NCBI GenBank assembly: GCA_964432455.1
Contig: CAYSNO010000003.1
Location: 1-37,197, forward strand
Direction of reading: 5' to 3'
DNA length: 37,197 nucleotides
Source of the DNA: an uncultured Candidatus Saccharibacteria bacterium
Lineage (GTDB): Bacteria > Patescibacteriota > Minisyncoccia > Phycocordibacterales > UBA918
Each line of letters starts with the position of its first letter. Position 1 is the stretch's first letter. A program made the translations under genes and the position numbers. Below the pieces are notes generated by a model. The model saw only the letters and a program-made list of their open reading frames with translations. It searched no databases and was not told the origin of the DNA. Shown here in pieces: positions 95 through 36,934 of this stretch.

Positions 95-96
95 AT

Positions 97-537
97 TTAT
101 TCTGGCATAATCGCGAAAAAATTTTCTACGAATTTATCTTTTGCAATTTTTTGTTCGCTGGTATATCTACCATTTCTCGGTGTCACTGAAATATATTGAT
201 CTAGAGCAAACGCGGCACGTTTTGCTTTATATGTTTGTAAATACGGCAATACTTGAATTAGCAAATCTATCGCTTGCCGACTATAAATTGCATACGTATA
301 AGCTTGAGCATGATTAAGTTTGTATACTTTTTTATTTGTAATGCGACCAGCTCCAATTACACGAGGTAGGTACTTTATAAGACTCAATTCAGTACCACTT
401 ACTGTGACAGCTAAGTGTCTGGTACCACCCTTCTGTTTTACTGAAAGAGTCACAGTGCCTTCACCATCGATAATACCCGCTATATATGCAGCCTCTGTTG
501 GTTTTAACTTATTTACTTTGGCATAAGTGCTTTCCAT
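97..537 (-). CDS. single-motif LAGLIDADG homing endonuclease (146 aa), apparently free-standing
   Basis: YIAGIIDGEGTV LAGLIDADG motif near the N-terminus; I-CreI-like size; AT-rich. ATG at 537 is preferred over the GTG at 540 in the ORF track. Confidence 0.85.
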   Translation of the reverse strand: MESTYAKVNKLKPTEAAYIAGIIDGEGTVTLSVKQKGGTRHLAVTVSGTELSLIKYLPRVIGAGRITNKKVYKLNHAQAYTYAIYSRQAIDLLIQVLPYLQTYKAKRAAFALDQYISVTPRNGRYTSEQKIAKDKFVENFFAIMPE

Positions 538-544
538 CACTTCT

Positions 545-553
545 ATTGTACCA
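545..553 (-). promoter_or_regulatory. extended -10 promoter TGGTACAAT, 7 nt upstream of the endonuclease ATG (leaderless geometry)
   Basis: The minus strand reads gacgTGGTACAATagaagtgATG. Confidence 0.55.
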
Positions 554-724
554 CGTCCAAAATGAAGGCCCGACTTCTGTTGAAATCAAAGTCAACTTTT
601 TAATGACTCGATTCTCCGTTCAAACACCCGCGATTCTGGGTTCAATTCTGCCCTCCATTTACACCCACATACTAATGTTGTACTGTACCCTCAGACATTG
701 AACAATTAGCGCTGGAGGGCGCAC

Positions 725-1318
725 ATGACAATCGTTCACAAACGCGGACAACTCTCGAAGCGCAATGACCCGAAGCGGGTCAGGCGTTCATTCAAGCGGC
801 ACGCACTACTCGTGCTCCAGCCGTTTGGAGCCACCTGCATCGTGTCCCTGATTTGGACACTCATGCACATGAGTGGTATCCATCTCGCGGGCGAAGACAC
901 TGAGCTGGTGTCGGTGGCGATCGTCAACACACTCGCCATCGTCTTCAGCCTCATCTACGCTGTGGTGCTCTCGGCCGTCTGGGACAACTACAAGAAAGTT
1001 ACCCTCTGCATCCTGCAAGAAGACAAGGAGAAGTTCCTCCTCTATCGTGACGAACGGATGCCGATTGTGATGCATCTTCTGCTGGGCGCTGCGGCCGGCG
1101 CACTTATCGGAGCTGTCGCCCTCTTGGAGTGGCATTCCAACTGGAGTGGGCTGTTCGGAGTATTCTCTGTCACATTCGTCATCTCCTTCTTTTGGATTGG
1201 CGCAACTGAACTGCAAGATCCGAAAAAGAGCCCCTGGATGGCAGAGCGTATCCCGGCGGCATGGTTCGAAGAAGATGTCGACGAACGCTTCTACGACGAC
1301 ACAGCGCCGAAACCCTAG
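725..1318 (+). CDS. polytopic membrane protein, possibly DUF4239-like
   Basis: 197-aa ORF with several hydrophobic helices. The IYAVVLSAVWDNY segment resembles the DUF4239 core as I recall it. Strong SD GGAGGG at 714-719. Confidence 0.7.
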   Translation: MTIVHKRGQLSKRNDPKRVRRSFKRHALLVLQPFGATCIVSLIWTLMHMSGIHLAGEDTELVSVAIVNTLAIVFSLIYAVVLSAVWDNYKKVTLCILQEDKEKFLLYRDERMPIVMHLLLGAAAGALIGAVALLEWHSNWSGLFGVFSVTFVISFFWIGATELQDPKKSPWMAERIPAAWFEEDVDERFYDDTAPKP

Positions 1319-1374
1319 ACAGTCCCACGAGAAGAGTCCCGCGACTCACACTCGTGGGACTCTTCATTTTATAG

Positions 1375-1923
1375 CTATCGCACCACCTCGTACCGCATCA
1401 GGACCCCACCCGTAGCAAGCGTCCGCGCTTCAAGAAGATTGAGCTCCTGGGTTGGCAAATCATCTTCAAACAGCTGTCGGCCATTGCCGAGAATCACTGG
1501 TGCAATACACAAGCGGTACTCATCAAACAATCCCGCTTTCATGAGTGAATTAGAAAGCTTGCCGCTGCCAAACACAAAGAGGTTCCCCTCACCTTCCTCT
1601 TTGAGCTTCGCGATATCAGCCACGGCGTCTTTGAGGATTTCGGTATTGTCCCAATCGGCATTCTCATGTGATGTCGAGCAGACGTACTTTTTCATACTGT
1701 TGACTCGCTCGGCCACCGGACCAGTTTCATTTTTCCAATAGGCAGCCATACCATCGTAGGTCACACTACCGTAGATAACTGCTTCGGCTGTATCAAGCTG
1801 CTCGATACTGAACTGTTCGAGCTCATCCCCATAGACCGACCCATGAAACTCCAAGTCCCATGGCTCCTCCCCTTGAAAATAGCCATCGATGGTAATCACA
1901 TTCCACATGATAAGTTTTTTCAT
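1375..1923 (-). CDS. dihydrofolate reductase-like protein (RibD C-terminal domain family)
   Basis: NLFVFGSGKLSNSLMKAGLFDEYRLCIAPVILGNGRQLF is typical of RibD_C/YwjB proteins. ATG at 1923 (MKKLIMWNV) sits 8 nt after TGGTAGCAT (1932-1940). Confidence 0.85.
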   Translation of the reverse strand: MKKLIMWNVITIDGYFQGEEPWDLEFHGSVYGDELEQFSIEQLDTAEAVIYGSVTYDGMAAYWKNETGPVAERVNSMKKYVCSTSHENADWDNTEILKDAVADIAKLKEEGEGNLFVFGSGKLSNSLMKAGLFDEYRLCIAPVILGNGRQLFEDDLPTQELNLLEARTLATGGVLMRYEVVR

Positions 1924-2064
1924 ATAAACAAATGCTACCACACCAGAGGTAGAAATAATGGCCTATCTTTACAAAACCGTCTTTTTGTGATATTATCCTA
2001 AACAGATTTGGGCTAGACTAAACCAGCCCAATTGCACTATTCACCCTTTAACAAGGACCTGCAG

Positions 2065-2445
2065 ATGACCAAACCGATACGCCTTCTCATCGCCGAAGAC
2101 GACCCTCAGAGGCTCGAACTGTTCTGTCGTTTGGCAGAACAACTGGGTTACGACTACCGTGCCGTCAACAACGGCGTGGCTGGTTGGAAGCTCATCAGGG
2201 ATGCCAAGGATGGTGAGGAGTTCAATCTGATCATCTCGGACAACGACATGCCCGTGATGGAAGGGATCGAGCTTCTGAGACTGGTCCGCGGCAACCCAAA
2301 GACCAAGTCGACGCCTTTCGTGCTCTACAGCAGCAACGACACCTGGTCGCTCAAACTCGAGGTGAGTGAGCTTGGTGCAGACTTCGAGGACAAGGCGCAG
2401 ATTTCTCCCCTTAATCTCTTGAAGAAGTACCTCCCGCTGTCCTAG
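2065..2445 (+). CDS. stand-alone response-regulator receiver (CheY-like) domain protein
   Basis: IRLLIAEDD ... LIISDNDMPVMEGIELLRLVR ... PFVLYSS receiver motifs. ATG 2065 is preceded by AAGGA. The track start at 2032 is TTG. Confidence 0.85.
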   Translation: MTKPIRLLIAEDDPQRLELFCRLAEQLGYDYRAVNNGVAGWKLIRDAKDGEEFNLIISDNDMPVMEGIELLRLVRGNPKTKSTPFVLYSSNDTWSLKLEVSELGADFEDKAQISPLNLLKKYLPLS

Positions 2446-2587
2446 GACGGCGTCCCCCCCACTAACACCCACGCCAGTCGTGGCGGAGAAAACCTCCCGC
2501 CACGAACTTCGGCGGGGTGTTTTCTTGTATTTTCTGTCCTGCTGTTGCATAGTAGCAGCGAACTAGTACGAAGCACCTGGAGGAATC

Positions 2588-3151
2588 ATGACCAGAATAC
2601 TTCAGACAATTGGTCCGCAAGGTGCTGGGAAATCCACATTTTGCGAATCACTGATGGCAGAAAAGATCGGTGGCGTCGCCTACGCCAGCAGAGACCGATT
2701 CCTTGTCGGGAGATACGGCAGCGAGGCATGGAATCCATACTCTGGTGCCATGCAAGAAGGGATGAAATATTTTTGGCAACACGTCGCCCATCTCGCAAGT
2801 GAACATCGTGTCGTCTTGCTCGAATGCTTCTGTGACGACCAGCGACACTTTAGTGACCTGCAGTGTGGCATATCGCTGGCAACGAACTGGTCGTCCACGA
2901 GACTTACTTATGAAGCGCTTTGGTTTGATACACCAAATCACATCTGCGCCGAATGGTACGTGTCGCGTGAGCAGAAAGTGCCACAAACCGAACGAGAGAG
3001 AAATCTTTCGATTTCCTTTGCTCGCAGTGCCAGTCGAGGATTTCGTCGTAGTGCCAGCAGAATACTCTGGAATTTTGAGACTATCTGGCACATCGACCCG
3101 AGACAACTACCGCTCTTTTCCTACTCCGAGATACTCGGACTACGGGCCTAG
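2588..3151 (+). CDS. P-loop NTPase / kinase-like protein (AAA_33-like)
   Basis: Walker A GPQGAGKST at the N-terminus; SD GGAGGA just upstream; no further domain recognised. Confidence 0.7.
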   Translation: MTRILQTIGPQGAGKSTFCESLMAEKIGGVAYASRDRFLVGRYGSEAWNPYSGAMQEGMKYFWQHVAHLASEHRVVLLECFCDDQRHFSDLQCGISLATNWSSTRLTYEALWFDTPNHICAEWYVSREQKVPQTERERNLSISFARSASRGFRRSASRILWNFETIWHIDPRQLPLFSYSEILGLRA

Positions 3152-4188: not shown

Positions 4189-4509
4189 TTATTTTAGTAA
4201 ATCATCAAGGGCATCAAAGCGACTCTCCCAGAGGGCTTGATACTCCGAAAGCGTACGAGCAGCGACCGCAATCGCTTTCGGGTTTGCACTAATAATCTGG
4301 TGTCTTCCCTCCCGCTTTTTGCTGATTAATCGCGCAGCCTCAAGTACACTAATGTGCTTCGCGACCGCAGCAAAGGTCAGGTGCTGATACGATTCGGCGA
4401 GCTCCCCCACAGACTGCGCCTGGCGCAAGACCCGACGAAGAATATCGCGCCGGGTGGTGTCCGCGAGAGAAGCAAAAACTGAATCGATGTTAATGGTATA
4501 TTCAACCAT
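4189..4509 (-). CDS. ArsR/SmtB-family HTH transcriptional regulator
   Basis: LADTTRRDILRRV..SVGELAE....FAAVAKHISVLEAARLISKKREGR winged-helix signature. Confidence 0.9.
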   Translation of the reverse strand: MVEYTINIDSVFASLADTTRRDILRRVLRQAQSVGELAESYQHLTFAAVAKHISVLEAARLISKKREGRHQIISANPKAIAVAARTLSEYQALWESRFDALDDLLK

Positions 4510-4518
4510 ATGGTTGAA
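4501..4518. promoter_or_regulatory. perfect 18-bp palindrome TTCAACCATATGGTTGAA, candidate ArsR operator
   Basis: The dyad is centred on the arsR start codon and lies between the arsR -10 box and the ATG, within the divergent arsR/GFA control region. Confidence 0.5.
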
Positions 4519-4526
4519 TATTAGCA
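4518..4526 (-). promoter_or_regulatory. extended -10 promoter TGCTAATAT, 8 nt upstream of the arsR ATG
   Basis: The minus strand reads catcTGCTAATATtcaaccatATG. Confidence 0.55.
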
Positions 4527-4541
4527 GATGTGTGGTTTTGG

Positions 4542-4569
4542 TGTCAAATTATTTTCCTCTTGCTATACT
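4542..4569 (+). promoter_or_regulatory. promoter TGTCAA-16-TGCTATACT, 7 nt upstream of ATG 4577
   Basis: gtgtcaaattattttcctctTGCTATACTaataaccATG, with no SD. Confidence 0.6.
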
Positions 4570-4576
4570 AATAACC

Positions 4577-4930
4577 ATGAAAACATATACCGGAGGCTGC
4601 CACTGCCAAAAAGTGCGCTACGAAGTAGATATGGAGGAACTCACCGAAGCGATGGCCTGTAACTGCTCTATCTGTAGCAAGCGCGGCTGGCTTCTTAGTT
4701 TCGTACCAGCATCATCATTTCGTCTCCTCTCAGGCGCGGACGAGGTAACCACTTACCACTTTAATAACAAGAAGATTGATCATATCTTTTGTAAGACGTG
4801 TGGGACAGCATCATATGGCTCTGGGAGCGATGGTGAAGGCAATGTCATGATGGCGATTAATGTCCGCTGTCTTGATGATGTTAATCTCGAGGCACTCAAG
4901 ATTAATCACGTCGACGGCAAGAGTTTCTAA
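4577..4930 (+). CDS. GFA (glutathione-dependent formaldehyde-activating / CENP-V-like) family zinc protein
   Basis: GGCHCQKVRYEV ... CNCSICSKRG ... FCKTCG cysteine pattern of the GFA family. The internal ATG is chosen over the upstream overlap with arsR. Confidence 0.85.
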   Translation: MKTYTGGCHCQKVRYEVDMEELTEAMACNCSICSKRGWLLSFVPASSFRLLSGADEVTTYHFNNKKIDHIFCKTCGTASYGSGSDGEGNVMMAINVRCLDDVNLEALKINHVDGKSF

Positions 4931-5262: not shown

Positions 5263-5333
5263 GGCTATTTACAGAACTGACTTTCTGCAGTACATTTCAC
5301 CACCAGTGTAACGCCTGCATCAAGGAGGATGAC

Positions 5334-5660
5334 ATGGGGCACATAGAAAGGACGGGGCCGAAGCCGATATCAAAGTACCAGCGTAAGCTCGAGGCCCGCA
5401 ATGCCGAAATCACCGATACGAGCGAACAAGATGAATCACCTGAAACTACCACCTGGGAGGTGACAGGGAGGATTTCGAAGATACCAACGAAGGGTTACTT
5501 CTTCGTGCAGTCGGAGGAGGCTGAACGGGTCTTCGTCGCCACCGAACTCCTTGGAGGCCACCTGACACCGCACGAACAAGACTGGCTGCGGTGCCGCGTG
5601 TTCCGCAACGAGCACGGACTTCGCGCTGAAGCAATCCTCGAGTACCGGACCGGTGCTTGA
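5334..5660 (+). CDS. hypothetical protein (108 aa), higher G+C with strong SD
   Basis: AAGGAGGA at 5322-5329 lies 4 nt before the ATG. A terminator follows. No family recognised. Confidence 0.6.
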   Translation: MGHIERTGPKPISKYQRKLEARNAEITDTSEQDESPETTTWEVTGRISKIPTKGYFFVQSEEAERVFVATELLGGHLTPHEQDWLRCRVFRNEHGLRAEAILEYRTGA

Positions 5661-5676: not shown

Positions 5677-5707
5677 GTCCTGCCCCAAAGGCAGGACGCT
5701 TTGTTTT
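5677..5707 (+). terminator. rho-independent terminator
   Basis: gtcctgcc-ccaaa-ggcaggac followed by gctttgtttt. Confidence 0.75.
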
Positions 5708-5742
5708 ACAGGAAAGCAGTATGTCGCTATACTTATAGCTAT

Positions 5743-6348
5743 ATGCCAGAAGGAGCTCAAAAACAAGAAAATAATATAGAAATTGTAAGCCAGAAAGAAA
5801 TCCTGCGGGCGATTCAGAGGAAATTTCTCCCTTATCAAACTATCGGTAATCCAGACTCCCTTGACTACCGACCTGAAATTGGCAATACCCTAAAGGCATT
5901 TAATGCAATCGTTGCCTACTATAATGCGCACCGAAATGAAGAAGATGAAAGTAAGCAGCTTCCCGACAATTGGCATATCCTAGGCTTGTCTGAGACGCCA
6001 AAATTTTTACTCGTCAAAGAAGTCGATGGTGAATTCAAGTTTGCCACTCCAAAATTTGGTGCGCCAACACCAGAAGTATTGCTGGCGACACTGAGAAATT
6101 ATCACGAACTTTTTCATTTAAAAACAAAACAAGAAGCGATTAGCCGCGGTCTGATAAAAGCGGAAGTAACGCCGATTGATTTTGAAAAACGCAGCCAGGA
6201 CATGGGCAGACTCTGGCGAGAACGGGCCGGCATTATCGCCCCTCAGTCAGTAGAACCAGCACCAAAAGCAGCTCCGGCTGTCCTCCAAATTACTGACAGT
6301 GACGCCCCTGTCACCCCAAGGGTGATACCCCGACGACCGACAAGATAA
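5743..6348 (+). CDS. hypothetical protein (201 aa)
   Basis: ATG 5743 lies 9 nt after TATACT (5728-5733). AT-richer, coherent ORF. No family recognised. Confidence 0.65.
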   Translation: MPEGAQKQENNIEIVSQKEILRAIQRKFLPYQTIGNPDSLDYRPEIGNTLKAFNAIVAYYNAHRNEEDESKQLPDNWHILGLSETPKFLLVKEVDGEFKFATPKFGAPTPEVLLATLRNYHELFHLKTKQEAISRGLIKAEVTPIDFEKRSQDMGRLWRERAGIIAPQSVEPAPKAAPAVLQITDSDAPVTPRVIPRRPTR

Positions 6349-6355: not shown

Positions 6356-6712
6356 CTATTTGTTATTGGTCGAATCCTCCTTCACTCGATACTTCACCAT
6401 TTTGGTGATGAGGGTCTTCGGAAGCGGTTTGTCGTACGGAAAGCGGACGCAACCTTTTGATGTGCTATACGGTGCAAGCTCGGTAGCAAAGGCGACTATA
6501 GCAGATGGGGTTGGGTAAAAACCAAGATGGCCTTTCATGGCAGCAAAGTAGACGAGGTCCTTGTTCCCTATCAGAGCTGGCATACCGTACTTGATCGCTT
6601 CACTGGCCTTCGGTGCGGCGGCACGGACGATATCGTACATGGTACGGAGATGTGGCTGTACGTCTTTGGCCTGCGCTTTCATATACGCGGCGACTGATGG
6701 ATAGGTTTTCAT
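6356..6712 (-). CDS. DUF1801 (YdhG-like) domain protein
   Basis: IKYGMPAL ... GHLGFYP ... STSKGCVRFPYDKPLP..LI..MV.YR pattern. ATG 6712 lies 7 nt after TATAAT (6720-6725). Confidence 0.85.
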   Translation of the reverse strand: MKTYPSVAAYMKAQAKDVQPHLRTMYDIVRAAAPKASEAIKYGMPALIGNKDLVYFAAMKGHLGFYPTPSAIVAFATELAPYSTSKGCVRFPYDKPLPKTLITKMVKYRVKEDSTNNK

Positions 6713-6916
6713 ACCAATAATTATAAAATAGAAATACAAAAGCAGCATCTCCCGACACTGCTCTATGTACATTTGAAAAACTTAGCCTTTCTTAAATTGC
6801 CCCAGATACGAGTGAGAAATGGGACGGGACCCATTTCGCAAGACCTTGCCAGCTACTTTATGAGTGAAACGAAATAAAGTGGCGACAAGGTGTACAGCTC
6901 CTGTAGGGAGGAAAAG

Positions 6917-7000: not shown

Positions 7001-7279
7001 CTAGCCCCTAATGAGCTGCACCAACCATATAAGTGCCACTGCTCCCACCACCGACACCCCGAGACTATAGAGATTAAGTCCGGTCACTCCCGCTCCCCCA
7101 AAGAAGCCAAAGAGCCATCCACCAATTGACGCTCCAACGATTCCAACAATAATGTTGAGAATGATCCCTTGTGATGCATCGGTCTTCATAATCATCGATG
7201 CAATCCAACCTGCTAGTCCACCTAGTACGAGCCACGCAATGTATCCCATAACGGTTGTGATTTTAAAAATAATCCTCAT
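7001..7279 (-). CDS. GlsB/YeaQ/YmgE-family (transglycosylase-associated) small membrane protein
   Basis: LGGLAGWIASMIM......GIILNIIVGIVGASIGGWLF glycine-zipper pattern. Confidence 0.9.
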   Translation of the reverse strand: MRIIFKITTVMGYIAWLVLGGLAGWIASMIMKTDASQGIILNIIVGIVGASIGGWLFGFFGGAGVTGLNLYSLGVSVVGAVALIWLVQLIRG

Positions 7280-7297
7280 TTAAATTGTATACCTGTC

Positions 7298-7820: not shown

Positions 7821-7833
7821 ATTATGTCATAAT
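7821..7833. promoter_or_regulatory. two overlapping, face-to-face extended -10 boxes (TGACATAAT minus, TGTCATAAT plus)
   Basis: ATTATGTCATAAT sits in the 32-bp divergent intergenic region. The plus box is 6 nt from ATG 7840 and the minus box is 13 nt from ATG 7807. Confidence 0.55.
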
Positions 7834-7839
7834 AGTGGT

Positions 7840-25034: not shown

Positions 25035-25040
25035 TGAACA

Positions 25041-28298: not shown

Positions 28299-28316
28299 AT
28301 AGCACTATTCTACCGA

Positions 28317-28766: not shown

Positions 28767-28767
28767 A

Positions 28768-29406
28768 TTACTTGATGTTTTTTAGGAGCTTGAGCGCCTC
28801 GACTGCAGCGCGTGCATTGTTAAGTTTGTTCTTACTACGTGAGAAAATCTTGGCAGTAACATCCTTTACTCCAGCCATTTCGAGAACGGTACGGACTGAA
28901 GAACCAGCCACGAGTCCTCGGCCTGGAGCCGGCATAATCATTACTTCACTTGAGGCATACTTGGTATGCACATCGTGTGGAAGGTGACTATCCTTGTTCA
29001 TTGGTACGACAATCATGTGCTTCTTGGCATCACGGACTGCCTTATCAATAGCGAGCTGGGTGTCACCGGCCTTACCAATACCAACACCTACCTTACCCTT
29101 CTTGTCACCGACGACCATCGCTACAGAGAAACTGAAACGACGACCACCAGCCATAACACGAGTAACGCGGCGGATACTGATAATCTTCTGATCAAACTCT
29201 GGACGAGTTCGCTCTGGACGAGCTGACCCACTGCGACGTGGACGACGATTGTTGTCACGGTTACCTCCTCGGTCATTTCCACCACGGCGAGGACGGCGAC
29301 CATCAGCTGGTACGGCGTCACTAGCGGGTGCATCGGTCGCTGGCACTTCTGGTGCCGCGATGTCTGGGGTGTTTTCCACCGCAGTTGTAGCTTCCTGCTC
29401 TGACAT
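28768..29406 (-). CDS. rpsE: 30S ribosomal protein S5 with a low-complexity N-terminal extension of about 70 aa
   Basis: IISIRRVTRVMAGGRRFSFSVAMVVGDKKGKVGVGIGKA core. The N-terminus is rich in R/N/G/P/A. Confidence 0.95.
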   Translation of the reverse strand: MSEQEATTAVENTPDIAAPEVPATDAPASDAVPADGRRPRRGGNDRGGNRDNNRRPRRSGSARPERTRPEFDQKIISIRRVTRVMAGGRRFSFSVAMVVGDKKGKVGVGIGKAGDTQLAIDKAVRDAKKHMIVVPMNKDSHLPHDVHTKYASSEVMIMPAPGRGLVAGSSVRTVLEMAGVKDVTAKIFSRSKNKLNNARAAVEALKLLKNIK

Positions 29407-29433
29407 AATTAATTCATTAGTTGAGATAAATCC

Positions 29434-29781
29434 TTAGAAGGTGAGACCATTGGCACGAGCACTATCAGCGAGCGCAGCAATGAGTCCCTGGTACTTGAAG
29501 CCACCGCGGTCAAAAACCACAGCGGTTACACCTTTGGCGACTGCTGCCTTGGCGATAGTAGCGCCTACAGCAACCGCTCCTTCGGTCATCGTGCCTTTGG
29601 TCTGACGTGAATCAGCCGCGGCCAAGGTAACACCCTTCTGGTCATCGATAAGCTGGGCGTACACAAAGCGATTACTCTTATAAATCGCGAGACGTGGACG
29701 TTCCGTAGTACCGGTAACTTTAGCGCGGATACGATTGTGTCGGACCGCACGCTTCGCATGTTTGTATTGAGTTTTTTCCAT
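29434..29781 (-). CDS. rplR: 50S ribosomal protein L18
   Basis: RHNRIRAKVTGTTERPRLAIYKSNRFVYAQLIDD. Internal ATG 29781 is chosen over the track start at 29907. Confidence 0.95.
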   Translation of the reverse strand: MEKTQYKHAKRAVRHNRIRAKVTGTTERPRLAIYKSNRFVYAQLIDDQKGVTLAAADSRQTKGTMTEGAVAVGATIAKAAVAKGVTAVVFDRGGFKYQGLIAALADSARANGLTF

Positions 29782-29791
29782 ACGTGTGGGC

Positions 29792-30322
29792 TTACACAGC
29801 CTTCTTACCTTGCTTGCGGATAATAAATTCACCTCGGTAGCGAATACCCTTACCCTTGTATGGTTCTGGCTTTCGTACCTTACGCACGTTTGCGGCAAAC
29901 TGACCAAGAAGGTCTTTGTCGTGACTTACGAGCGTAATTGCACTCTTCTCCACGGTGGCAGTGATGCCAGCTGGAATAGCGAGGAGTACTGGGTGTGAGT
30001 ACCCCATACTAAGCGAAAGATCAGTACCCTTCACTTCAGCACGGTACCCCACTCCTTCAATATCAAGAATCTTGGTGAAACCAGTAGTTACGCCAACAAT
30101 CATGTTCCGGAGGTGTGCTGCATAGGTACCCCACAATGCTTTCGCAAGAACGGTAGTACCTGGTGCAAGCGTGATCGTGTCGCCATCAATGGTGATAGTG
30201 ACATCATCGCGCATCGGTCGAACAAGTGTTCCCTTTGGTCCCTTCACGGTCAAGTGACCGTCTGCGAGTGTTACCTCGACGCCAGCTGGGATAGCCACTG
30301 GCAATTTTCCTAAACGACTCAT
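29792..30322 (-). CDS. rplF: 50S ribosomal protein L6
   Basis: MSRLGKLPVAIPAGVEV ... GYSHPV ... KGKGIRY. ATG 30322 is chosen. Confidence 0.95.
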   Translation of the reverse strand: MSRLGKLPVAIPAGVEVTLADGHLTVKGPKGTLVRPMRDDVTITIDGDTITLAPGTTVLAKALWGTYAAHLRNMIVGVTTGFTKILDIEGVGYRAEVKGTDLSLSMGYSHPVLLAIPAGITATVEKSAITLVSHDKDLLGQFAANVRKVRKPEPYKGKGIRYRGEFIIRKQGKKAV

Positions 30323-30323
30323 A

Positions 30324-30716
30324 TTACCAAATGAGGAAAAGCTGCTCACCACCGACATTCTTCGCCTTGGCCTCAACGTTTGTGAGGATACCAGCTGGAG
30401 TCGAGAGGATGAGATGCCCCTTTCCGAACTTTACTTGATGGATAGATTCGACCTTGGTGTAGAGACGACGACCTGGCTTACTGACGCGCTTAACGCCATT
30501 AATACGGTGTGCCCCATCTTCGTACTTGAGCGTTACTTCAAGTGTCTTCTGTGCAACTTTTCCTTTGGCTGTTGCTGCTTCAACGTATCCTGCCTCAACG
30601 AGCTTGTCTGCCACGGCATGACGGAGCTTTGAGTACGGCACTGAGACGGTCTTGTGACCAACTACGCCCGCATTCTTGAGACGGATGATGAAATCGCCAA
30701 TTGTATCTCCTACCAT
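30324..30716 (-). CDS. rpsH: 30S ribosomal protein S8
   Basis: [13 protein letters not shown]... and STPAGILT...A....VGGE.L..IW. Confidence 0.96.
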
Positions 30717-30895
30717 GATGATTTCTTTATACCTGGTATATGTCCTTCGTGAGCCAATTCACGGAAGCAGATACGACAAATGTCGAAATCTCGCATATAT
30801 CCGTGCTTGCGGCCACAGAGCTTGCAGCGTCGTACGACGCGTGAAGCATACTTCGGAGTACGCTGTGAGCGTACTATGACTGATGTTCGAGCCAC
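30710..30895 (-). CDS. rpsN: 30S ribosomal protein S14, type Z (zinc-binding, 61 aa)
   Basis: [41 protein letters not shown] start. Confidence 0.93.
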
Positions 30896-31065
30896 TTTTT
30901 ATTGTGTTATCTGTACGAGGCCGTATCACCGAGAAAATGGTGACGTGCCTCCTAATAAATGTGCCAAAAAGGTCATAACGAGTACCGGAAACCGGTTCTC
31001 TACCCCTCTCACACACCGCCAAGCCTAGAAATACAGTGAGTTCATAGACTTCGCAGCTGGTCGCA

Positions 31066-31093
31066 ATAGTATCAGAAAAATAAGAAATAGCAA
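31066..31093 (-). promoter_or_regulatory. candidate internal promoter TTGCTA-16-TACTAT for rpsN-...-secY
   Basis: The minus strand reads ccTTGCTAtttcttatttttctgaTACTATtgcg, just downstream of the 17-bp hairpin. Confidence 0.45.
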
Positions 31094-31100
31094 GGTTTTA

Positions 31101-31139
31101 GCAAAAACAAAGCCCCCCAAATGGGGGCTTTGTTTTTGC
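31101..31139. terminator. perfect 17-bp hairpin inside the rplE-rpsN spacer
   Basis: gcaaaaacaaagccccc-caaat-gggggctttgtttttgc. Confidence 0.7.
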
Positions 31140-31328
31140 TCTGTTTTTGAGTATTACTCAGCTTTTTGCAAAGGTAGTCACCATTTTCTAAGTATAATTT
31201 TCACTACGTTTAATTCTACTTAGAAATGCCGACCCGGCCTCGACCGTTTTTGCTCTTGGTTAGAGCAAAAACATGTCTCCGGCTCTTACCGCTTCCGGAC
31301 GAGATACTAATCTCGTCCTAAAAAGAAA

Positions 31329-31877
31329 CTAGTTCGTTTCTTTTTGAAGCGGCAAGCCGATGTGTCGCAAAAATGCTTCTGCTTCTTCTTTGGTCTTTGC
31401 GGTAGTCACAATAGTGACCGCAAATGAGAAGGAATCCTTGAGTTCATCATCAGCACATTCTGGGAAGATAGTACTGTCTTTGATACCAATGGTGATATTC
31501 CCCATCTCATCAATTGCAGTAGCCTTAAGACCACGGAAGTCGCGAGTCTGCGGAATAGCAATATGGATGAGCTTGTCAATGAAGTGAATCATGCGAGCGC
31601 CACGGATAGTTACCTGGTGCCCAATGATTTCTCCTTCACGGAGCTTAAAGGCGGCAATCGACTGCTTGGCAGGACGTGGTGATGGCTTTTGCCCAGTGAT
31701 GAGCGAGAGGCGATCCACAATCATCGCTTCGCGGTGTTTGTCCTGCACACGGCCAGTTCCCACTGACACCACGATCTTTTCGAGCTTTGGTGTCTGCATC
31801 ACATTCGTGTACCCGAAGGTACCCTTCATGGCTTCAAATGTTGAGGCGAGCTTCTGTTTGGTAGTTTCCATATGCAT
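31329..31877 (-). CDS. rplE: 50S ribosomal protein L5
   Basis: NVMQTPKLEKIVVSVGTG ... ITGQKP ... KQSIAAFKLREG. The start is 31877 or 31871. Confidence 0.96.
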   Translation of the reverse strand: MHMETTKQKLASTFEAMKGTFGYTNVMQTPKLEKIVVSVGTGRVQDKHREAMIVDRLSLITGQKPSPRPAKQSIAAFKLREGEIIGHQVTIRGARMIHFIDKLIHIAIPQTRDFRGLKATAIDEMGNITIGIKDSTIFPECADDELKDSFSFAVTIVTTAKTKEEAEAFLRHIGLPLQKETN

Positions 31878-32188
31878 TAGATTTTCTTACCGCTTGGTCG
31901 GGCGACACGCACTTTCTTCTTCTTGTCGCCTTCGCCCTCGAAGATGTAGCCGATGCGCACAGTCTTGTCTCCCTCCATGAGGGCAACATTTGATGCGTCA
32001 ATTGGCATACTCTTCTCGATAATCTGTCCCTGTGAACGCACCTGCTTACTCTTCTGGTGCTTGGTGGCAACGTTCACCCCTTCGATAACCACCTGGTTCA
32101 TGTCCTTCAAGGTCATGAGGATGGTACCGGTCTTGCCTTTATCTTTTCCGGCAATCACCTTTACGGTGTCTCCTTTCTTGAGTTTCAT
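31877..32188 (-). CDS. rplX: 50S ribosomal protein L24
   Basis: MKLKKGDTVKVIAGKDKGKTG.I KOW motif. Confidence 0.95.
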   Translation of the reverse strand: MKLKKGDTVKVIAGKDKGKTGTILMTLKDMNQVVIEGVNVATKHQKSKQVRSQGQIIEKSMPIDASNVALMEGDKTVRIGYIFEGEGDKKKKVRVARPSGKKI

Positions 32189-32208
32189 ATGATGAAATAG
32201 TTAGGCGA

Positions 32209-32580
32209 CTACACGACCTCCGGGGCCAATGAGACGATTTTCTGATAACCAGCTTCGGCCAATTCGCGTGGGATTGGACCAAAAACGCGGTTCGCTTTTG
32301 GTTCTTTCTTCACCTTGTCGACAAGCACGACGGCGTTGTCGTCAAAGCTCACGTATGAGCCATCCTTGCGACGGTAGGGCTTGACCTGGCGCACCACTAC
32401 TCCGTACACAACATCCTTCTTCTTTACTGCTTTGCGTGGTTCGGCAGTCTGTACTGAAAGTACGACCATTTCACCGAGCTCAGCGTAACGCTTCTTCGAG
32501 CCACCAAGAATCTTGAACACACGTCCGACCTTGGCACCCGAGTTGTCCGTAATCCGAACAATTGTCTGTGGCTGAATCAT
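32209..32580 (-). CDS. rplN: 50S ribosomal protein L14
   Basis: MIQPQT...I.DNSGAK....KILGGSK.RYA. Confidence 0.97.
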   Translation of the reverse strand: MIQPQTIVRITDNSGAKVGRVFKILGGSKKRYAELGEMVVLSVQTAEPRKAVKKKDVVYGVVVRQVKPYRRKDGSYVSFDDNAVVLVDKVKKEPKANRVFGPIPRELAEAGYQKIVSLAPEVV

Positions 32581-32590
32581 AGTGAATTCA

Positions 32591-32842
32591 TTACTTGGTT
32601 AAAAGGGTGAAGTGCTTGCGCTTTGACATTGGGCGAGTTTCGCGGATTTCTACAATCGCACCTTCTTTCGCCGTATTGCCTGCATCATGTACCAAGAACT
32701 TCTTGGTACGACGCATGAACTTCTTGTACTTTGGATGCATCACGTACCGCTCGACAGCGACCGTAATAGTATCCTTCATCTTCGTAGAAACGACAGTCCC
32801 TTTGAGGACACGACCGTTCTGTGTAGTTGAATCTGTTGTCAT
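32591..32842 (-). CDS. rpsQ: 30S ribosomal protein S17
   Basis: LKGTVVSTKMKDTITVAVERYVMHPKYKK....TKKF.VHD. Confidence 0.95.
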   Translation of the reverse strand: MTTDSTTQNGRVLKGTVVSTKMKDTITVAVERYVMHPKYKKFMRRTKKFLVHDAGNTAKEGAIVEIRETRPMSKRKHFTLLTK

Positions 32843-32848
32843 ATCCTA

Positions 32849-33052
32849 TTACTTGGTGTCGGCCTGACGTGCACGAGTGTTGAGTTCGGTGAGGGTACGT
32901 GCAATCGTGAGCTTTGCCTTTCTAATAACTGATGCCTTGCGGGTAAAGCGGTCTTTGAAGCGTTCACTCTGGAGTTCACCGCGAGAGGTGGTCACGAGCT
33001 CTTCGAGCTCACTCACACTCTTCTTTGCAATATCTTCGTATTTCATATGCAA
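32849..33052 (-). CDS. rpmC: 50S ribosomal protein L29
   Basis: Position between rplP and rpsQ, with an L29-like helical sequence (SVSELEELV....GEL...RF). Confidence 0.9.
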   Translation of the reverse strand: MHMKYEDIAKKSVSELEELVTTSRGELQSERFKDRFTRKASVIRKAKLTIARTLTELNTRARQADTK

Positions 33053-33058
33053 TGCTGG

Positions 33059-33499
33059 TTACTTAGCGATAGTGTCTGCCTTTGAGACTACCTTGGCTTT
33101 TAATGGGAGCTTGTTGACTGATTTGCGAAGTGCCTTACGAGCGAGTTCTTCACTCGTTGCGCCCTTCACTTCGAAGATGATGCGACCTGGTTCTACCTCA
33201 AAGACGTAGTGGTCGAGATCACCCTTACCTTTACCCATCGGTACTTCGGCAGCCTTCTTCGTAATTGGACGGTCTGGGAAAATACGGATGTATACCTGAC
33301 CAGTCTTACCAAGCGTACGAGAAATTACTCGACGAGCGGCTTCAATCTGGTTTGAACGAACACGAGAAGCAGTGGTAGCCTGGAGACCAAATTCACCAAA
33401 GGCGACTGTGGTCCCGCGGGTAGCCGGACGATTGCGCTTCTCTTCACTCTTGCGGCCAGTTTGCCACTTGCGGTGTGCTACTTTTTTTGGAAACAACAT
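33059..33499 (-). CDS. rplP: 50S ribosomal protein L16
   Basis: MLFPKKV.HRK...GR ... GEFGLQA ... QIEAARR.I.R ... PMGKGKG. Confidence 0.97.
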   Translation of the reverse strand: MLFPKKVAHRKWQTGRKSEEKRNRPATRGTTVAFGEFGLQATTASRVRSNQIEAARRVISRTLGKTGQVYIRIFPDRPITKKAAEVPMGKGKGDLDHYVFEVEPGRIIFEVKGATSEELARKALRKSVNKLPLKAKVVSKADTIAK

Positions 33500-33505
33500 A
33501 CCTGT

Positions 33506-34240
33506 TTAGCGGTTACGTGGCGCTCGGGGAGCGCTTTCTCTGGTCTCGCCGCGAGCTGGAGTTGCCTCCTGACCTGCCTTGCGATCACCAAAGATATCAC
33601 CCTTATAAATCCAGACCTTAATACCAATAGCACCGTATGGCAAGCGCGCAGTAACGCGAGCGAAGTCAATATCGGCACGGAGTGTCTGGAGTGGAATTCG
33701 ACCCTTCTTCAATTCTTCAATACGAGCCATATCAGCACCACCGAGGCGACCTGAAAGCTTGATACGAACTCCCTGTACATCACGACTGGCCATCACTTTT
33801 TCGATGGTCTGCTTCATGACGCGACGGAAGGTCATACGCTTTTCAAGGCCTTCGGCAATCATCTGACCGACAATGTTCGCACTACTTTCTGGCGTACGAA
33901 TTTCTTCAATGTCGAGCTTGATTTCTGGCTTACTGATAAGACCCGCCTTACGGAAGAGCATATCAATCTCTTGCTTGAGCTTGACCGCACCTTCACCACT
34001 ACGACCGATCACGAGACCTGGACGAGCGGTTTTGATAATGATACGAACCATCTTCTGGTTGCGCTCAATTTCAACCGTATCAACGGACATACCCTTAAGA
34101 CGCTTTTCGAGGAACTTACGAATCGCGGCGTCGACGCGAATGTACTCACGGTACTGCTTTGGATCGGTAGTGAACCAACGACTCTTCCAGTCGCGGATGA
34201 TACCGACACGCTGTACGTATGGATGTGCTACGTGTGTCAT
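33506..34240 (-). CDS. rpsC: 30S ribosomal protein S3 (with basic C-terminal extension)
   Basis: HPYV.R.GI...W.SRWF; KH domain; GRLGGADMAR.E....GR.PLQTLRADIDF. Confidence 0.97.
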   Translation of the reverse strand: MTHVAHPYVQRVGIIRDWKSRWFTTDPKQYREYIRVDAAIRKFLEKRLKGMSVDTVEIERNQKMVRIIIKTARPGLVIGRSGEGAVKLKQEIDMLFRKAGLISKPEIKLDIEEIRTPESSANIVGQMIAEGLEKRMTFRRVMKQTIEKVMASRDVQGVRIKLSGRLGGADMARIEELKKGRIPLQTLRADIDFARVTARLPYGAIGIKVWIYKGDIFGDRKAGQEATPARGETRESAPRAPRNR

Positions 34241-34243
34241 AGA

Positions 34244-34567
34244 TTATTTGGTACCGAGCTCAATAGTAATGTGACTGGCTCGCTTGTTGATGCGAGAAGC
34301 CGAACCACGAGCACGTGGCATAAAGCGCTTTAGAGTTGGTGCCTTATCAACAGACACAAACTTCACGATAAGATGATCAGGATTGGCGCCCGCCTGCTTG
34401 GCGTTTGCGACAGCTGAAGCGAGGAGCTTACCGAACTGTACGGCGGCACGCTTTTCAACGAATTGGAGTGCGTGTTGCGCGACACCAACCTTCTTACCAC
34501 GAATCACATCAGCCACGAGGCGAACCTTGCGAGGTGATTGGCGATAGTTTTTGAGAGTTGCTTTCAT
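34244..34567 (-). CDS. rplV: 50S ribosomal protein L22
   Basis: YRQSPRKVRLVADVIRGKKV..A...L.F ... GP.LKRFMPRARG.A..I.KR.SHIT. Confidence 0.96.
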   Translation of the reverse strand: MKATLKNYRQSPRKVRLVADVIRGKKVGVAQHALQFVEKRAAVQFGKLLASAVANAKQAGANPDHLIVKFVSVDKAPTLKRFMPRARGSASRINKRASHITIELGTK

Positions 34568-34572
34568 ACAGT

Positions 34573-34920
34573 TTATTTCTTCTTAGTAGCAGGTCCTGCT
34601 GATTTAGCGGCCTTGGCTGCTGCGATTTCGGCTTCCTTCTTCTTCTGTTCAAGTTCCTTCTGCATCTTACCTCCGTGACGATGGAACTTCTTCGTTGGTG
34701 AGAATTCACCAAGACGATGACCCACCATTTCTTCTGCAACAAGTACTTCGACGTGATCTTTACCATTGTGAACACCGAAAGTGAATCCGACCATTTCTGG
34801 AGAGATTGTCGAGCGGCGAGCCCAGGTTTTGATCACAGCACTCTCTCCGGGCTTTTTTCCGGCGATCTTTTTGAGGAGCTTTTCGTCTATGTATGGTCCT
34901 TTATAGAGTGATCGTGACAT
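34573..34920 (-). CDS. rpsS: 30S ribosomal protein S19 with a Lys/Ala-rich C-terminal extension
   Basis: [17 protein letters not shown] ... I.TW.RRSTI.PEMVG.T..VHNGK. Confidence 0.96.
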
Positions 34921-35284: not shown

Positions 35285-35293
35285 TGCTATACT
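35285..35293 (+). promoter_or_regulatory. extended -10 promoter TGCTATACT, 7 nt upstream of ATG 35301
   Basis: tattTGCTATACTtacctccATG. The intervening acctcc is anti-SD-like, not an SD. Confidence 0.55.
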
Positions 35294-35300
35294 TACCTCC

Positions 35301-35903
35301 ATGATCACCCCGTCGCACCTCATTTATAGCTGGGCGCTTGCCAAACGAACCGAAAAAACAACGCTCGATGGGCCGGCAAAACACCGTACAGCCGCCTTTG
35401 TGGTCGGGGCACTGCTACCAGATATTCCAGTCTATGTCTTCTTTTTGGTCTGCGGGGTACTGCTCGGCTACGGGCACGAACGACTCTGGGACGATATGTA
35501 CTTTAATTCTGGCTGGTCCGTCGCGTTTACCCTCAGTCATTCTCTGCTATTTTGGCCAGGTATCTACCTGGTGGCCAAGTACAAGCGGTGGCTTGTAGCA
35601 CAATGGGTGGCTATTTCAGCCGTTTTTCACATCGTAGTGGATTTTTGTGTTCATACGGCTGATGCCTACGCTCACTTTTGGCCGCTGACGGATTGGCGGT
35701 TTATCAGTCCTATCTCCTACTGGGACCGAGCGTCTTATGGACAGTATGTGGGGTGTTTTGATGCTTTACTCATTCTTTGCCTCCTGATTTGGCTCACCAC
35801 CCGCTACCGTGAGAGTAAGCTGCGTTTTTTAGTTTACGTACTTCTTGCTTTTGCTACCTTGCGTTTTGGATTCGAGTTTTATAACCTCCTCACCTATGCC
35901 TAG
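35301..35903 (+). CDS. membrane-bound metal-dependent hydrolase-like protein (YdjM/DUF457-like)
   Basis: Polytopic. MITPSHLIYSWAL.., LLPDIP, HSLLFWP and FHIVVDFCVHTADAYAHFWP His-rich motifs resemble DUF457 as I recall it. Confidence 0.65.
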   Translation: MITPSHLIYSWALAKRTEKTTLDGPAKHRTAAFVVGALLPDIPVYVFFLVCGVLLGYGHERLWDDMYFNSGWSVAFTLSHSLLFWPGIYLVAKYKRWLVAQWVAISAVFHIVVDFCVHTADAYAHFWPLTDWRFISPISYWDRASYGQYVGCFDALLILCLLIWLTTRYRESKLRFLVYVLLAFATLRFGFEFYNLLTYA

Positions 35904-36204
35904 ACCCCGCGGTAGCGAACACACCACCCTGACCGAGACGGCCGAACTGCTCGTTCGTGAACTCAAAAAACAATCAGGTATCAAAATGATTGCCCCTGGT
36001 GTCATCGATGCCAAGCGCTCTGGTAAGCGCCACATCACGGCGGTCTACACCTCGGCTGGTATTCACTTTATTGTCTCCGGTACCGGAGTACAAAAAATCT
36101 CGGTACACCTCGCTGATGCTGCAGCTGGACCAAAGCTGGTGGCCACCCTTAAAAACGCCAAAGCCCTCAAGCAATTTGCTTGGGGCGAGCGATACCGCGA
36201 ATAA
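35896..36204 (+). CDS. hypothetical protein (102 aa)
   Basis: ATG 35896 overlaps the stop of the previous gene, which suggests translational coupling. No family recognised. Confidence 0.6.
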   Translation: MPRPRGSEHTTLTETAELLVRELKKQSGIKMIAPGVIDAKRSGKRHITAVYTSAGIHFIVSGTGVQKISVHLADAAAGPKLVATLKNAKALKQFAWGERYRE

Positions 36205-36211
36205 ATAGTGG

Positions 36212-36916
36212 CTAGAGCGTTTCTCGTGGTGGTTTTTCTGGTTGAAATTCTTCAGTGTGTGTTTTCCAGTCAATCTCCGTATCATCTGCAGGATGAATTG
36301 AGTCCTGTGATGCGATATGTCTAGGCGCATCTCCAGCATAGGGACTCTTGAAAATTTCATTTTTTGTACCACTAGCACTGCCATCCTTAACTGAGGCAAT
36401 GATAGCCTCTTCTTTGGCCTTTTGGTAAGCCTCGAACTCTGCACTCGCAATTATCACATCACAAAGTTGATTAATATCCTGATCGGAAAAGTGCCTCGCG
36501 TTTGCAACTTTTATAAAAGCTTTAACTTCCTCCAAGGCAGCGACAGCATCAGAATTTACTGGATTCATTGCTTGTGCCAAACTTTCAAAGAGTTTAGTGC
36601 GCAGCACTGGCTGACGCTCAAGCAAACCTTTTAGATTATCGACTCGACTTGGTAGATCTGCTTTCATATACTCTTTAATTGCTGTCTCAGCAATATCTTG
36701 CCCCACCTTTTCAGCCAACTCTAGTCGGATAACACCAAATTCGGAATTATCTGACTCAGAAAATGCTAATCCATCTTTATGTTTAACTTTGATGTTGTGC
36801 AGAGCGTCTTGTTGATACGACTCTAATTTTTTTATTACATCAATTCCCTGTTCACTCTGCTCAACTTGCGCAGCTGGTGTTCTACTAAAGAGTTTTTTAC
36901 TGAATTCGAATGCCAT
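36212..36916 (-). CDS. hypothetical helical protein (234 aa)
   Basis: ATG 36916 (MAFEFSKKLF) lies 9 nt after TGGTATACT. AT-rich. The upstream part of the track ORF runs through the rplB terminator. Confidence 0.65.
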   Translation of the reverse strand: MAFEFSKKLFSRTPAAQVEQSEQGIDVIKKLESYQQDALHNIKVKHKDGLAFSESDNSEFGVIRLELAEKVGQDIAETAIKEYMKADLPSRVDNLKGLLERQPVLRTKLFESLAQAMNPVNSDAVAALEEVKAFIKVANARHFSDQDINQLCDVIIASAEFEAYQKAKEEAIIASVKDGSASGTKNEIFKSPYAGDAPRHIASQDSIHPADDTEIDWKTHTEEFQPEKPPRETL

Positions 36917-36925
36917 AATGCCACT

Positions 36926-36934
36926 AGTATACCA
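36926..36934 (-). promoter_or_regulatory. extended -10 promoter TGGTATACT, 9 nt upstream of ATG 36916
   Basis: The minus strand reads tatcTGGTATACTagtggcattATG. Confidence 0.55.

Follow-up and report, generated by a model that had tools for sequence, protein, structure and literature searches.

The window analysed here is a 37,197-nucleotide chromosomal contig (CAYSNO010000003.1) of a Paceibacteria bacterium (Parcubacteria; candidate phyla radiation, CPR), an uncultured, ultra-small organism from activated sludge. Its sequence makes it very likely that the core transcription units are of leaderless type, that the core is independent of Shine-Dalgarno (SD) sequences, and that a small, separate accessory set of genes is SD-led. 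We define a leaderless-type start as one in which the last T of a sigma-70 -10 hexamer (TANNNT, consensus TGnTATACT) lies 6-9 nt before the ATG. Twenty such starts are found among about 53 window genes (about 40%), and the messenger RNAs (mRNAs) of these genes probably have no leader. A first-pass annotation made from the letters alone had proposed this division between leaderless core units and a separate SD-led set, and all of the sequence and comparative tests that were run support it. The annotation described two coexisting initiation styles; both are present, but by their sequence features the starts fall into four classes rather than two: leaderless-type, coupled without an SD, leadered without an SD, and SD-led.

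Hexamers before unit-first genes

TANNNT hexamers are concentrated directly before gene starts. With a spacer of 6-9 nt, the hexamer precedes 19 of 52 curated ATG starts versus 69 of the 1106 ATGs in the window as a whole (6.2%; binomial p=1.3e-10). Conversely, an ATG follows at 6-9 nt after 9 of 26 TATA[AC]T hexamers (1.5 expected) and 16 of 87 matches to TGNTANNNT (5.1 expected). A start-blind profile, which takes the first ATG of every non-overlapping open reading frame (ORF) of at least 100 amino acids (aa) and uses no promoter knowledge, gives a sharp peak at spacer 6-9 in the window (20 of 49). The same peak is present in the six closest related loci (51 of 133) and in eleven mid-distance loci (67 of 267), with a weaker signal in the most distant loci (24 of 139); the related loci compared total about 450 kb. 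SD cores form no positional peak in this profile, in the window or in 26 related loci. The positional enrichment of TATAxT that the first-pass annotation predicted is therefore seen in the window and in these 26 loci. All 20 leaderless-type starts are ATG, while infC uses TTG and rpsZ uses GTG, and no SD is found upstream of any of the 20 (duplex free energy, dG, of -5.3 or weaker).

The annotation listed 17 starts with a hexamer at a given spacing, and all 17 hexamers are found as quoted; 15 fit TANNNT, and the hexamer before the start at 7840 is CATAAT, with a TG. As gene starts, the listed positions stand with one exception. At 7279 the sequence TATACA is indeed present at a spacer of 6 nt, but the ATG is GAG in the related locus L030, where the start at 7249 (MGYIAW..., 82 aa) is conserved; 7279 is therefore not a gene start and the gene is leadered. 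Four leaderless-type starts were absent from the list: 13259(-), 20590(-), 24987(-) and 26042(+). Placement of the start codons is supported by several independent observations. In the RibD_C and GFA proteins the Pfam domains start at residues 1-3, tblastn alignments to relatives open at the identical ATG with an offset of 0, and the genes annotated in other assemblies have the same ATGs. For the Lys/Ala/Pro-rich gene the most likely start is 13259, behind TGCTAGAAT, and not 13277. Gene callers that expect an SD will misplace such starts, as with 13277 for 13259, 7279 for 7249, and the GTG calls in L030.

The hexamers have the properties of promoters. When 158 leaderless-type starts were aligned on the hexamer, with TG positions playing no part in their selection, a TG was found one base upstream in 55 versus about 9 expected. 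The window itself has the extended -10 TG at 15 of its 20 leaderless-type starts, essentially without a -35 box, which bears out the annotation's remark that the extended TG is frequent. Three of the five TG-less starts (5743, 23741 and 24374) instead have the -35 boxes TTTACA, TTGCTA and TTGCCA at 16-17 nt. This compensation between TG and -35 is the classical rule for sigma-70 promoters. In addition, two conserved non-coding elements with terminators at their ends are preceded, at about 7 nt, by TGGTATACT and TTGACT-17-TAGTAT. The TG enrichment, the -35 compensation and the presence of the same motifs before non-coding RNAs together identify the hexamers as promoters. A generic sigma-70 scan gave 21 matches to paired -35 and -10 boxes versus 17.9 in shuffled sequences, which is not above the shuffles; the promoter signal resides in the -10 position and the TG, not in full consensus promoters. 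The starts thus combine the features of extended -10 sigma-70 promoters (a TG one base upstream of TANNNT and a dispensable -35) with those of bacterial leaderless genes (a -10 enriched 6-9 nt before unit-first starts, an AUG start and an SD-free upstream region). The divergent starts 13259 and 13296 are only 36 nt apart.

Conservation among relatives follows the position of a gene in its unit. For orthologues in loci L001-L017, a TANNNT at 6-9 nt is found before secY in 14 of 17 (as TAGAAT, TATACT, TACAAT, TACTAT or TAGCAT), before the cytidylate-kinase-like (cmk-like) gene in 13 of 14 and the 20590 gene in 7 of 10 (in both cases always with TG), before adk in 11 of 15, before the second adk-like gene (adk2) in 7 of 9, and before map in 8 of 15. 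Taken together, the unit-first genes have the hexamer in 60 of 80 orthologues, versus 17 of 154 cases for eleven operon-internal ribosomal genes, where a stop codon, TAA or TAG, supplies it in most cases. T1, A2 and T6 of the hexamer are fixed among orthologues while the inner bases drift, and the TGnTAnnnT pattern of adk2 is retained in relatives. The private promoters that had been suggested for secY, adk and map are thus retained in relatives, with variable inner bases. In distant relatives rplO and secY abut, and the 18-nt spacer that bears the hexamer is a feature of the clade.

SD-free core genes and SD-led accessory genes

The remaining core genes are either coupled or leadered, and in both cases they are free of SDs. 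Operon-internal genes start at -16 to +27 nt relative to the preceding stop, and they are without an SD (duplex dG with ACCUCCUUA of -3.8 to +2.1 kcal/mol), which is the arrangement expected for translational coupling, with stop and start overlapping or near and no ribosome-binding site of the gene's own. Across all core genes this dG is never at or below -6.2. The ribosomal genes had been described as tightly coupled and without GGAGG, and they are so, with dG values of -3.8 to +1.3 and distances of -7 to +27 nt. An exception is the 433-nt spacer between rplE and rpsZ, which contains a terminator (31109-31131) and a promoter (31066-31093); rpsZ, which starts with GTG at 30895 behind these elements, is leadered without an SD. 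SD-less leaders of about 20-165 nt precede a minority of core units, namely infC, rpmI-rplT, ndk, rpsS, rpsZ and the genes at 3646 (leader about 19 nt) and 7249. In the relatives, a strong SD stands before 1.5-5% of ORF starts, equal to a background rate of 3.9%.

SD-led initiation is marked by a purine-rich stretch that can pair with CCUCC and lies 4-9 nt ahead of the start codon. The annotation named ten SD starts in the window. Six of them (725, 2588, 5334, 15193, 22006 and 22691) have strong SDs, with dG values of -8.8 to -11.7 kcal/mol and spacers of 3-7 nt; two (2065 and 14767) are weak, and the other two, 16075 and 16309, belong to doubtful ORFs of 41 and 58 aa. In G+C the SD genes exceed the other genes by about 5 points (Mann-Whitney p=0.002). 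The proposal that SD starts lie in patches of higher G+C holds to the extent that the six strong SDs are in slightly richer segments, but the equally G+C-rich xfp and ackA are leaderless-type, and "accessory, clade-restricted segments" is the better descriptor. Accessory status holds for the four SD genes whose segments were comparable with relatives: segment 21883-22968 is absent from L001-L006 (L003 has 33 bp there), and L006 has other sequence in place of segment 13332-16590. Among 5.8 billion proteins there are just 6 homologues of the 205-aa protein and 5 of the 204-aa protein, and the homologues with visible neighbours occupy the same slots in related Paceibacteria genomes. No plasmid similarity was found in the SD segments, nor any PHROG match except to a generic receiver domain. 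We considered a simple recent transfer as the origin of these segments; since the homologues occur only in the same clade and no foreign donor can be named, this idea was dropped.

As judged from their substitution pattern, the SD genes are real, maintained genes under purifying selection and not mere relics: their ratio of nonsynonymous to synonymous divergence (dN/dS) is 0.20-0.28. In such divergent homologues as were found, the SD is still present at a synonymous divergence (dS) of 1.4-1.9. In the L032 homologue of the 204-aa gene, 24 of the 25 nt before the ATG are identical while the protein is 52% identical. From the dN/dS values and the conservation of the SDs at this dS we conclude that the SD-type elements of the accessory genes are probably functional. 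Typically, these genes have a promoter with a full TTGACA -35 box and a leader of 35-125 nt.

Predicted mechanism, alternatives and known systems

Most units have a sigma-70 promoter directly before the first gene, usually either an extended -10 (TGnTAnnnT) without a -35 or a -35 with a TG-less -10. In the mechanism suggested by these features, RNA polymerase is predicted to start at the A of the ATG or no more than about 3 nt away from it; with transcription starting at that A, the mRNA would begin with AUG, to which a 70S ribosome, or a 30S subunit with initiation factor 2 and initiator tRNA, could bind directly. Downstream SD-less cistrons may be read by termination-reinitiation or by 70S scanning, and SD-less leaders might depend on low structure or on protein S1. 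The ribosome would still be able to use SD pairing, or else the SD-like elements could be bound by, for example, a conserved CCUCCC small RNA (sRNA). Under either reading of the SD elements, the core genes are independent of SD.

Several observations weigh against leaderless initiation. The relatives are loci sampled mainly within 10 kb of secY plus two further syntenic contigs. Where the spacer is 8-9 nt, the AUG of some mRNAs may be preceded by 1-3 nt. The promoter of secY lacks both a TG and a good -35 and is weak by sequence, and contigs from RNA runs span the rplO-secY junction. A scan of the window and of 26 related loci gave no ribosomal RNA (rRNA) motif, and Rfam places no rRNA in the window. 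Metatranscriptome runs X25-X28, X41, X42 and X44 hold window DNA as assembled contigs at a depth of 2-7; these cover genes, spacers and non-coding RNAs alike, show no 5' ends and cross the divergent 24987/25041 spacer. Such contigs look like DNA carry-over or read-through and probably contain DNA.

The hexamer could alternatively serve translation and not transcription, as a non-SD motif that binds ribosomes or enhances translation of leadered mRNAs in the manner of the GeneMarkS-2 "group B", with the true promoters further upstream. The motif is A/T-rich and lies at the position of a ribosome-binding site, core genes without an SD might be expected to carry another signal, and the -35 boxes are on average weak. 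A ribosome-binding site would, however, precede operon-internal genes too, and the motif is absent there (17 of 154 versus 60 of 80), which argues against this explanation. The TG one base upstream and its compensation by a -35 are properties of sigma-70 promoters, non-coding RNAs are preceded by the same motif, the leadered core genes infC, rpmI and ndk have no such motif beside their starts, and divergent pairs such as 13259/13296 leave no space for other promoters; we consider a translational motif very improbable. Still harder to credit is an artefact, whether chance matches in A/T-rich spacers, wrong start codons, or a chimera of two initiation styles. One listed start (7279) was indeed wrong, and G+C along the window ranges from 0.39 to 0.56. 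The enrichment statistics, though, are start-blind or controlled against all ATGs, and the starts are backed by Pfam, orthologue alignments and other gene callers. A chimeric assembly was rejected because independent metagenome contigs, from four studies, bridge the G+C transitions at even depth; a single independent contig of 16.4 kb spans window positions 10206-20000. An artefact is already largely refuted.

A further alternative concerns the SD motifs, which could be non-functional relics of recent transfer from SD-users in an organism with a single, SD-independent style and a 16S rRNA that has lost its anti-SD. The SD genes lie in segments absent from most relatives, are higher in G+C, and have promoters with a canonical TTGACA -35, unlike the core promoters, and loss of the anti-SD has been reported for about half of Parcubacteria 16S sequences. 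The homologues of SD genes are nevertheless confined to the clade and to the same loci (the 6 and 5 among 5.8 billion proteins), dN/dS is 0.2-0.3, and the SDs survive at a dS of 1.4-1.9, with the 25-nt 5' untranslated region in L032 more conserved than the protein. We therefore regard the relic explanation as unlikely, and we prefer a leaderless-type, SD-independent core alongside SD elements that are probably functional. A more speculative version, which we hold to be similarly doubtful, is that the clade translates its whole core without SD pairing, by way of leaderless mRNAs, reinitiation and SD-less leaders, and that the SD serves as a regulatory tag on a small accessory regulon whose mRNAs are specifically controlled by the SorX-like sRNA described below, its single-stranded CCUCCC mimicking the anti-SD. 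SD recognition would then have been reduced from a general initiation signal to a regulatory tag.

A -10 (Pribnow) box 6-8 nt before the start is described in the GeneMarkS-2 report (PMC6028130) as the accepted mark of bacterial leaderless genes. In that text, the "group C" pattern is common in Actinobacteria and Deinococcus-Thermus, including Mycobacterium tuberculosis and Deinococcus deserti, and resembles the window in having the Pribnow box 6-8 nt before operon-first ATG starts, with about 25-50% of units predicted to be leaderless (PMC6028130). It differs in that its internal and leadered genes use SDs, which those of the window do not, and CPR or Paceibacteria are not among the lineages that the available text lists for it (PMC6028130). 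Haloarchaea and Sulfolobus ("group D") share leaderless first genes and little or no SD elsewhere; their promoters, however, are archaeal TATA/BRE elements about 26 nt upstream, used with archaeal initiation factors, whereas the window has bacterial sigma-70 extended -10 promoters. Leadered mRNAs of Haloferax are mostly SD-free. The Bacteroidota-type group B is similar in that core genes, including ribosomal protein genes, have no SD, but its non-SD motif stands before all genes on leadered mRNAs, in contrast to the promoter motif of the window, which precedes first genes only. With extended -10 (TGn) sigma-70 promoters, the window shares the TG position, the dispensable -35 and the presence of a -35 when the TG is absent, and there is no difference at the sequence level.

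Closest in lineage are the Parcubacteria without an anti-SD (Tsurumaki et al. 2022, PMC9297842), which belong to the same phylum-level group and likewise have no uL30 and adjacent uS5 and uL15 genes. Of the 16S sequences from Parcubacteria, just 48% had an anti-SD motif that could be detected, a result whose consequence the authors left open (PMC9297842). The 16S of the anti-SD-less members has no CCUCCU and uL1 is usually absent (PMC9297842). An SD-free core is what loss or disuse of the anti-SD would predict; how translation starts is a matter on which that paper is silent, and none of the literature found describes how mRNAs are started in such Parcubacteria. The conserved accessory SDs of the window set it apart and argue that its anti-SD may be retained. 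No report of leaderless mRNAs in CPR, Patescibacteria, Parcubacteria or Saccharibacteria was found in the searched literature, a search that excluded subscription journals. Because that literature links no leaderless mRNAs to CPR lineages, what we describe is an organisation of a known kind, now in a further lineage, with the twist that the remaining core is SD-free while a few accessory genes keep their SDs. Much of bacterial diversity belongs to the CPR/Patescibacteria, which have unusual ribosomes and hardly any cultured members. For one clade, the window and its related loci offer a concrete and testable answer to how initiation occurs, namely promoter-adjacent AUGs and tight coupling. The TGnTATACT-N6-9-ATG module may serve as a design rule for gene expression in these organisms, and SD-led accessory genes in an SD-free core bear on the loss and retention of initiation mechanisms.

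Source of the contig, feature coordinates and neighbouring elements

SecY of the window is 95-97% identical to that of three metagenome-assembled genomes (MAGs), labelled Parcubacteria, Paceibacteria or uncultured bacterium, and 72-88% identical to that of 14 further genomes, including Parcubacteria OLB19 and a "Kaiserbacteria" MAG. The gap between rpsE and rplO is 1 nt, without the uL30 gene in between, which is a hallmark of the CPR. Window DNA is present at a word share of 85-99% in 20 sequencing runs, mostly metagenomes of activated sludge, bioreactor sludge and wastewater. A co-occurring strain in the bioreactor-sludge run X10 is without window positions 1-11300 and most of 14316-15815; run X6 differs from the window at many single bases, and the left third of the window is strain-variable.

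Table 1. Start regions in the window by class, with promoter or SD motif and spacer (dG in kcal/mol).
Feature	Coordinates (strand)	Start	Class	Motif, spacer and remarks
LAGLIDADG endonuclease gene (97-537)	535..553 (-)	537	leaderless-type	TGGTACAAT, 7 nt, ATG; independent gene callers agree on ATG
RibD_C gene	1921..1940 (-)	1923	leaderless-type	TGGTAGCAT, 8 nt, ATG; Pfam domain from residue 3
ArsR gene	4507..4547 (-)	4509	leaderless-type	TTGACA-18-TGCTAATAT, 8 nt, ATG
GFA gene	4561..4579 (+)	4577	leaderless-type	TGCTATACT, 7 nt, ATG; profile position 1 = residue 3
201-aa gene	5705..5745 (+)	5743	leaderless-type	TTTACA-17-TATACT, 9 nt, ATG; terminator immediately upstream
DUF1801 gene	6710..6725 (-)	6712	leaderless-type	TATAAT, 7 nt, ATG
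Dockerin-like gene	7825..7842 (+)	7840	leaderless-type	TGTCATAAT, 6 nt, ATG; -10 begins with C; kept in L030
Phosphoketolase xfp	12077..12096 (-)	12079	leaderless-type	TGCTATACT, 8 nt, ATG
SET-domain gene	12164..12184 (+)	12182	leaderless-type	TGCTATACT, 9 nt, ATG
Lys/Ala/Pro-rich gene	13257..13276 (-)	13259	leaderless-type	TGCTAGAAT, 8 nt, ATG; most likely start
DUF1295 gene	13279..13298 (+)	13296	leaderless-type	TGTTACACT, 8 nt, ATG
Membrane-protein gene	20588..20607 (-)	20590	leaderless-type	TGCTACTAT, 8 nt, ATG
map	23739..23779 (-)	23741	leaderless-type	TTGCTA-17-TATAGT, 9 nt, ATG
adk	24372..24410 (-)	24374	leaderless-type	TTGCCA-16-TACACT, 8 nt, ATG
adk2	24985..25002 (-)	24987	leaderless-type	TGGTACCGT, 6 nt, ATG
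334-aa gene	25026..25043 (+)	25041	leaderless-type	TGGTAAAAT, 6 nt, ATG
cmk-like gene	26027..26044 (+)	26042	leaderless-type	TGGTATACT, 6 nt, ATG
secY	28296..28312 (-)	28298	leaderless-type	TAGAAT, 8 nt, ATG; inside 18-nt rplO-secY spacer
200-aa gene	35285..35303 (+)	35301	leaderless-type	TGCTATACT, 7 nt, ATG
234-aa gene between rplB and rpsS	36914..36934 (-)	36916	leaderless-type	TGGTATACT, 9 nt, ATG
Ribosomal-protein genes rpsS to rplE, rpsZ to rplO	28317..34920 (-)		coupled, no SD	SD-free throughout; -7 to +27 nt; uL30 absent
Transglycosylase-associated gene	7249..7293 (-)	7249	leadered, no SD	leader about 27 nt from TACAAT
infC	16592..16689 (+)		leadered, no SD	promoter TTGCAA-16-TGGTATATT; leader about 60 nt; TTG start
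rpmI-rplT	17606..17771 (+)		leadered, no SD	promoter TTGATT-17-TATATT; leader about 130 nt; rplT 9 nt later
ndk	21501..21547 (-)		leadered, no SD	TACAAT/TATAGT promoter; conserved leader about 30 nt
197-aa membrane-protein gene	714..727 (+)	725	SD-led	GGAGGG, 5 nt, ATG; dG -9.8
Response-regulator receiver gene	2053..2067 (+)	2065	weak SD	AAGGA, 7 nt; promoter 1968-1996, leader about 60 nt
P-loop kinase-like gene	2579..2590 (+)	2588	SD-led	GGAGGA, 3 nt, ATG; dG -9.3
108-aa gene	5322..5336 (+)	5334	SD-led	AAGGAGGA, 4 nt, ATG; dG -11.4; kept in L030
85-aa ORF	14757..14769 (+)	14767	weak SD	GAGGA, 5 nt; promoter TTGACA-17-TACTAT at 14681-14709
204-aa clade-restricted gene	15180..15195 (+)	15193	SD-led	AAGGAGA, 6 nt, ATG; dG -9.3
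45-codon ORF	22004..22021 (-)	22006	SD-led	GAAGGAGGA, 6 nt; dG -11.7; ORF passes through terminator hairpin
205-aa clade-restricted gene	22689..22706 (-)	22691	SD-led	GAAGGAGA, 7 nt, ATG; dG -8.8

Several leaderless-type genes head short operons. The ArsR gene is followed after 9 nt by an SRPBCC gene and the GFA gene after 5 nt by the gene at 4936, both without an SD, while the 20590 gene heads an operon that continues with a beta-CASP RNase (14-nt overlap) and another gene (10 nt). A leaderless-type two-gene operon is formed by xfp and ackA (8562-12079, minus strand), with ackA overlapping the end of xfp by 16 nt. The three adjacent nucleotide-kinase paralogues adk, adk2 and the cmk-like gene (23781-24987, minus strand, and 26042-26674, plus strand) each have their own leaderless-type promoter, that of the cmk-like gene sitting within the upstream gene. 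The ribosomal cluster is broken twice (34921-37011 and 30896-31328). About 2 kb between rplB and rpsS contain three unrelated genes and a non-coding RNA, an arrangement also seen in L003, L004 and L008. The spacer between rplE and rpsZ (30896-31328) also has hairpins and a weak, sub-threshold sraL-like Rfam match, and its length varies among relatives.

An sRNA gene at 21708-21791 (minus strand; promoter 21805-21833) scores 61.3 bits against the Rfam SorX model (RF02784; gathering threshold 46.6) and belongs to that family by this measure; SorX in Rfam is a singlet-oxygen sRNA of Rhodobacter. The gene recurs in 8 related loci (L001, L002, L003, L008, L027-L029 and L031). Its features are a TTGACA-17-TACACT promoter of its own, a 5' hairpin that varies, an invariant single-stranded CCUCCCUGUUGGAC that is anti-SD-like, and a terminator stem that covaries between loci, and some copies have two CCUCC motifs. 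Across the clade it lies between map and ndk. Such an sRNA is odd in a genome with SD-free core genes. After it comes another RNA, about 130 nt long, whose promoter is TGTGGTATACT (21681-21696) and whose terminator is long. The neighbouring segment 21883-22968 (minus strand) is dense in small elements. The stop of map is followed by an extended -10 and a very small hairpin-terminator RNA (about 22940), and next by a mini-ORF of 8-10 codons that is SD-led. The 205-aa gene and the 45-codon SD-led ORF come after these; the 3' part of this ORF crosses a terminator hairpin, and its conservation in L027 and L029 may reflect the RNA.

Three conserved non-coding elements have no Rfam name even at a permissive threshold. 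One, of about 170 nt, lies at 20664-20837 (minus strand) between ndk and the 20590 operon; its promoter is TGGTATACT, and it contains the closing helix GGAACGACA/TGTCGTTCC as well as a terminator. Its identity is 96% to the L003 copy and 80% to the L013 copy, and it occurs in more RNA runs than the adjoining genes. Another, at about 35100-35270 (minus strand) upstream of rpsS, has a TTGACT-17-TAGTAT promoter and a terminator-like end; its identity to L003 is 95%, and to L005 and L006 75-77%. A separate structured insert of about 100 nt at 6813-6913, with an RNA fold z-score of -5.5, is missing in L030; four metagenomes have contigs that break at this position, where depth is 3-8 times that of the flanks, and the insert is probably a small multi-copy or mobile repeat.

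At its left end the contig stops within a tmRNA gene (window 1-55; tag AKNSVPSPYANAFGFAPAVA), which is complete in L033 beside smpB and ftsH (L033 6788-7179). The free-standing LAGLIDADG endonuclease gene (97-537, minus strand; G+C 0.37) lies 42 nt from this tmRNA gene. Extension of the left end past the endonuclease gene, in search of an rRNA intron, reached tmRNA, smpB and ftsH instead.

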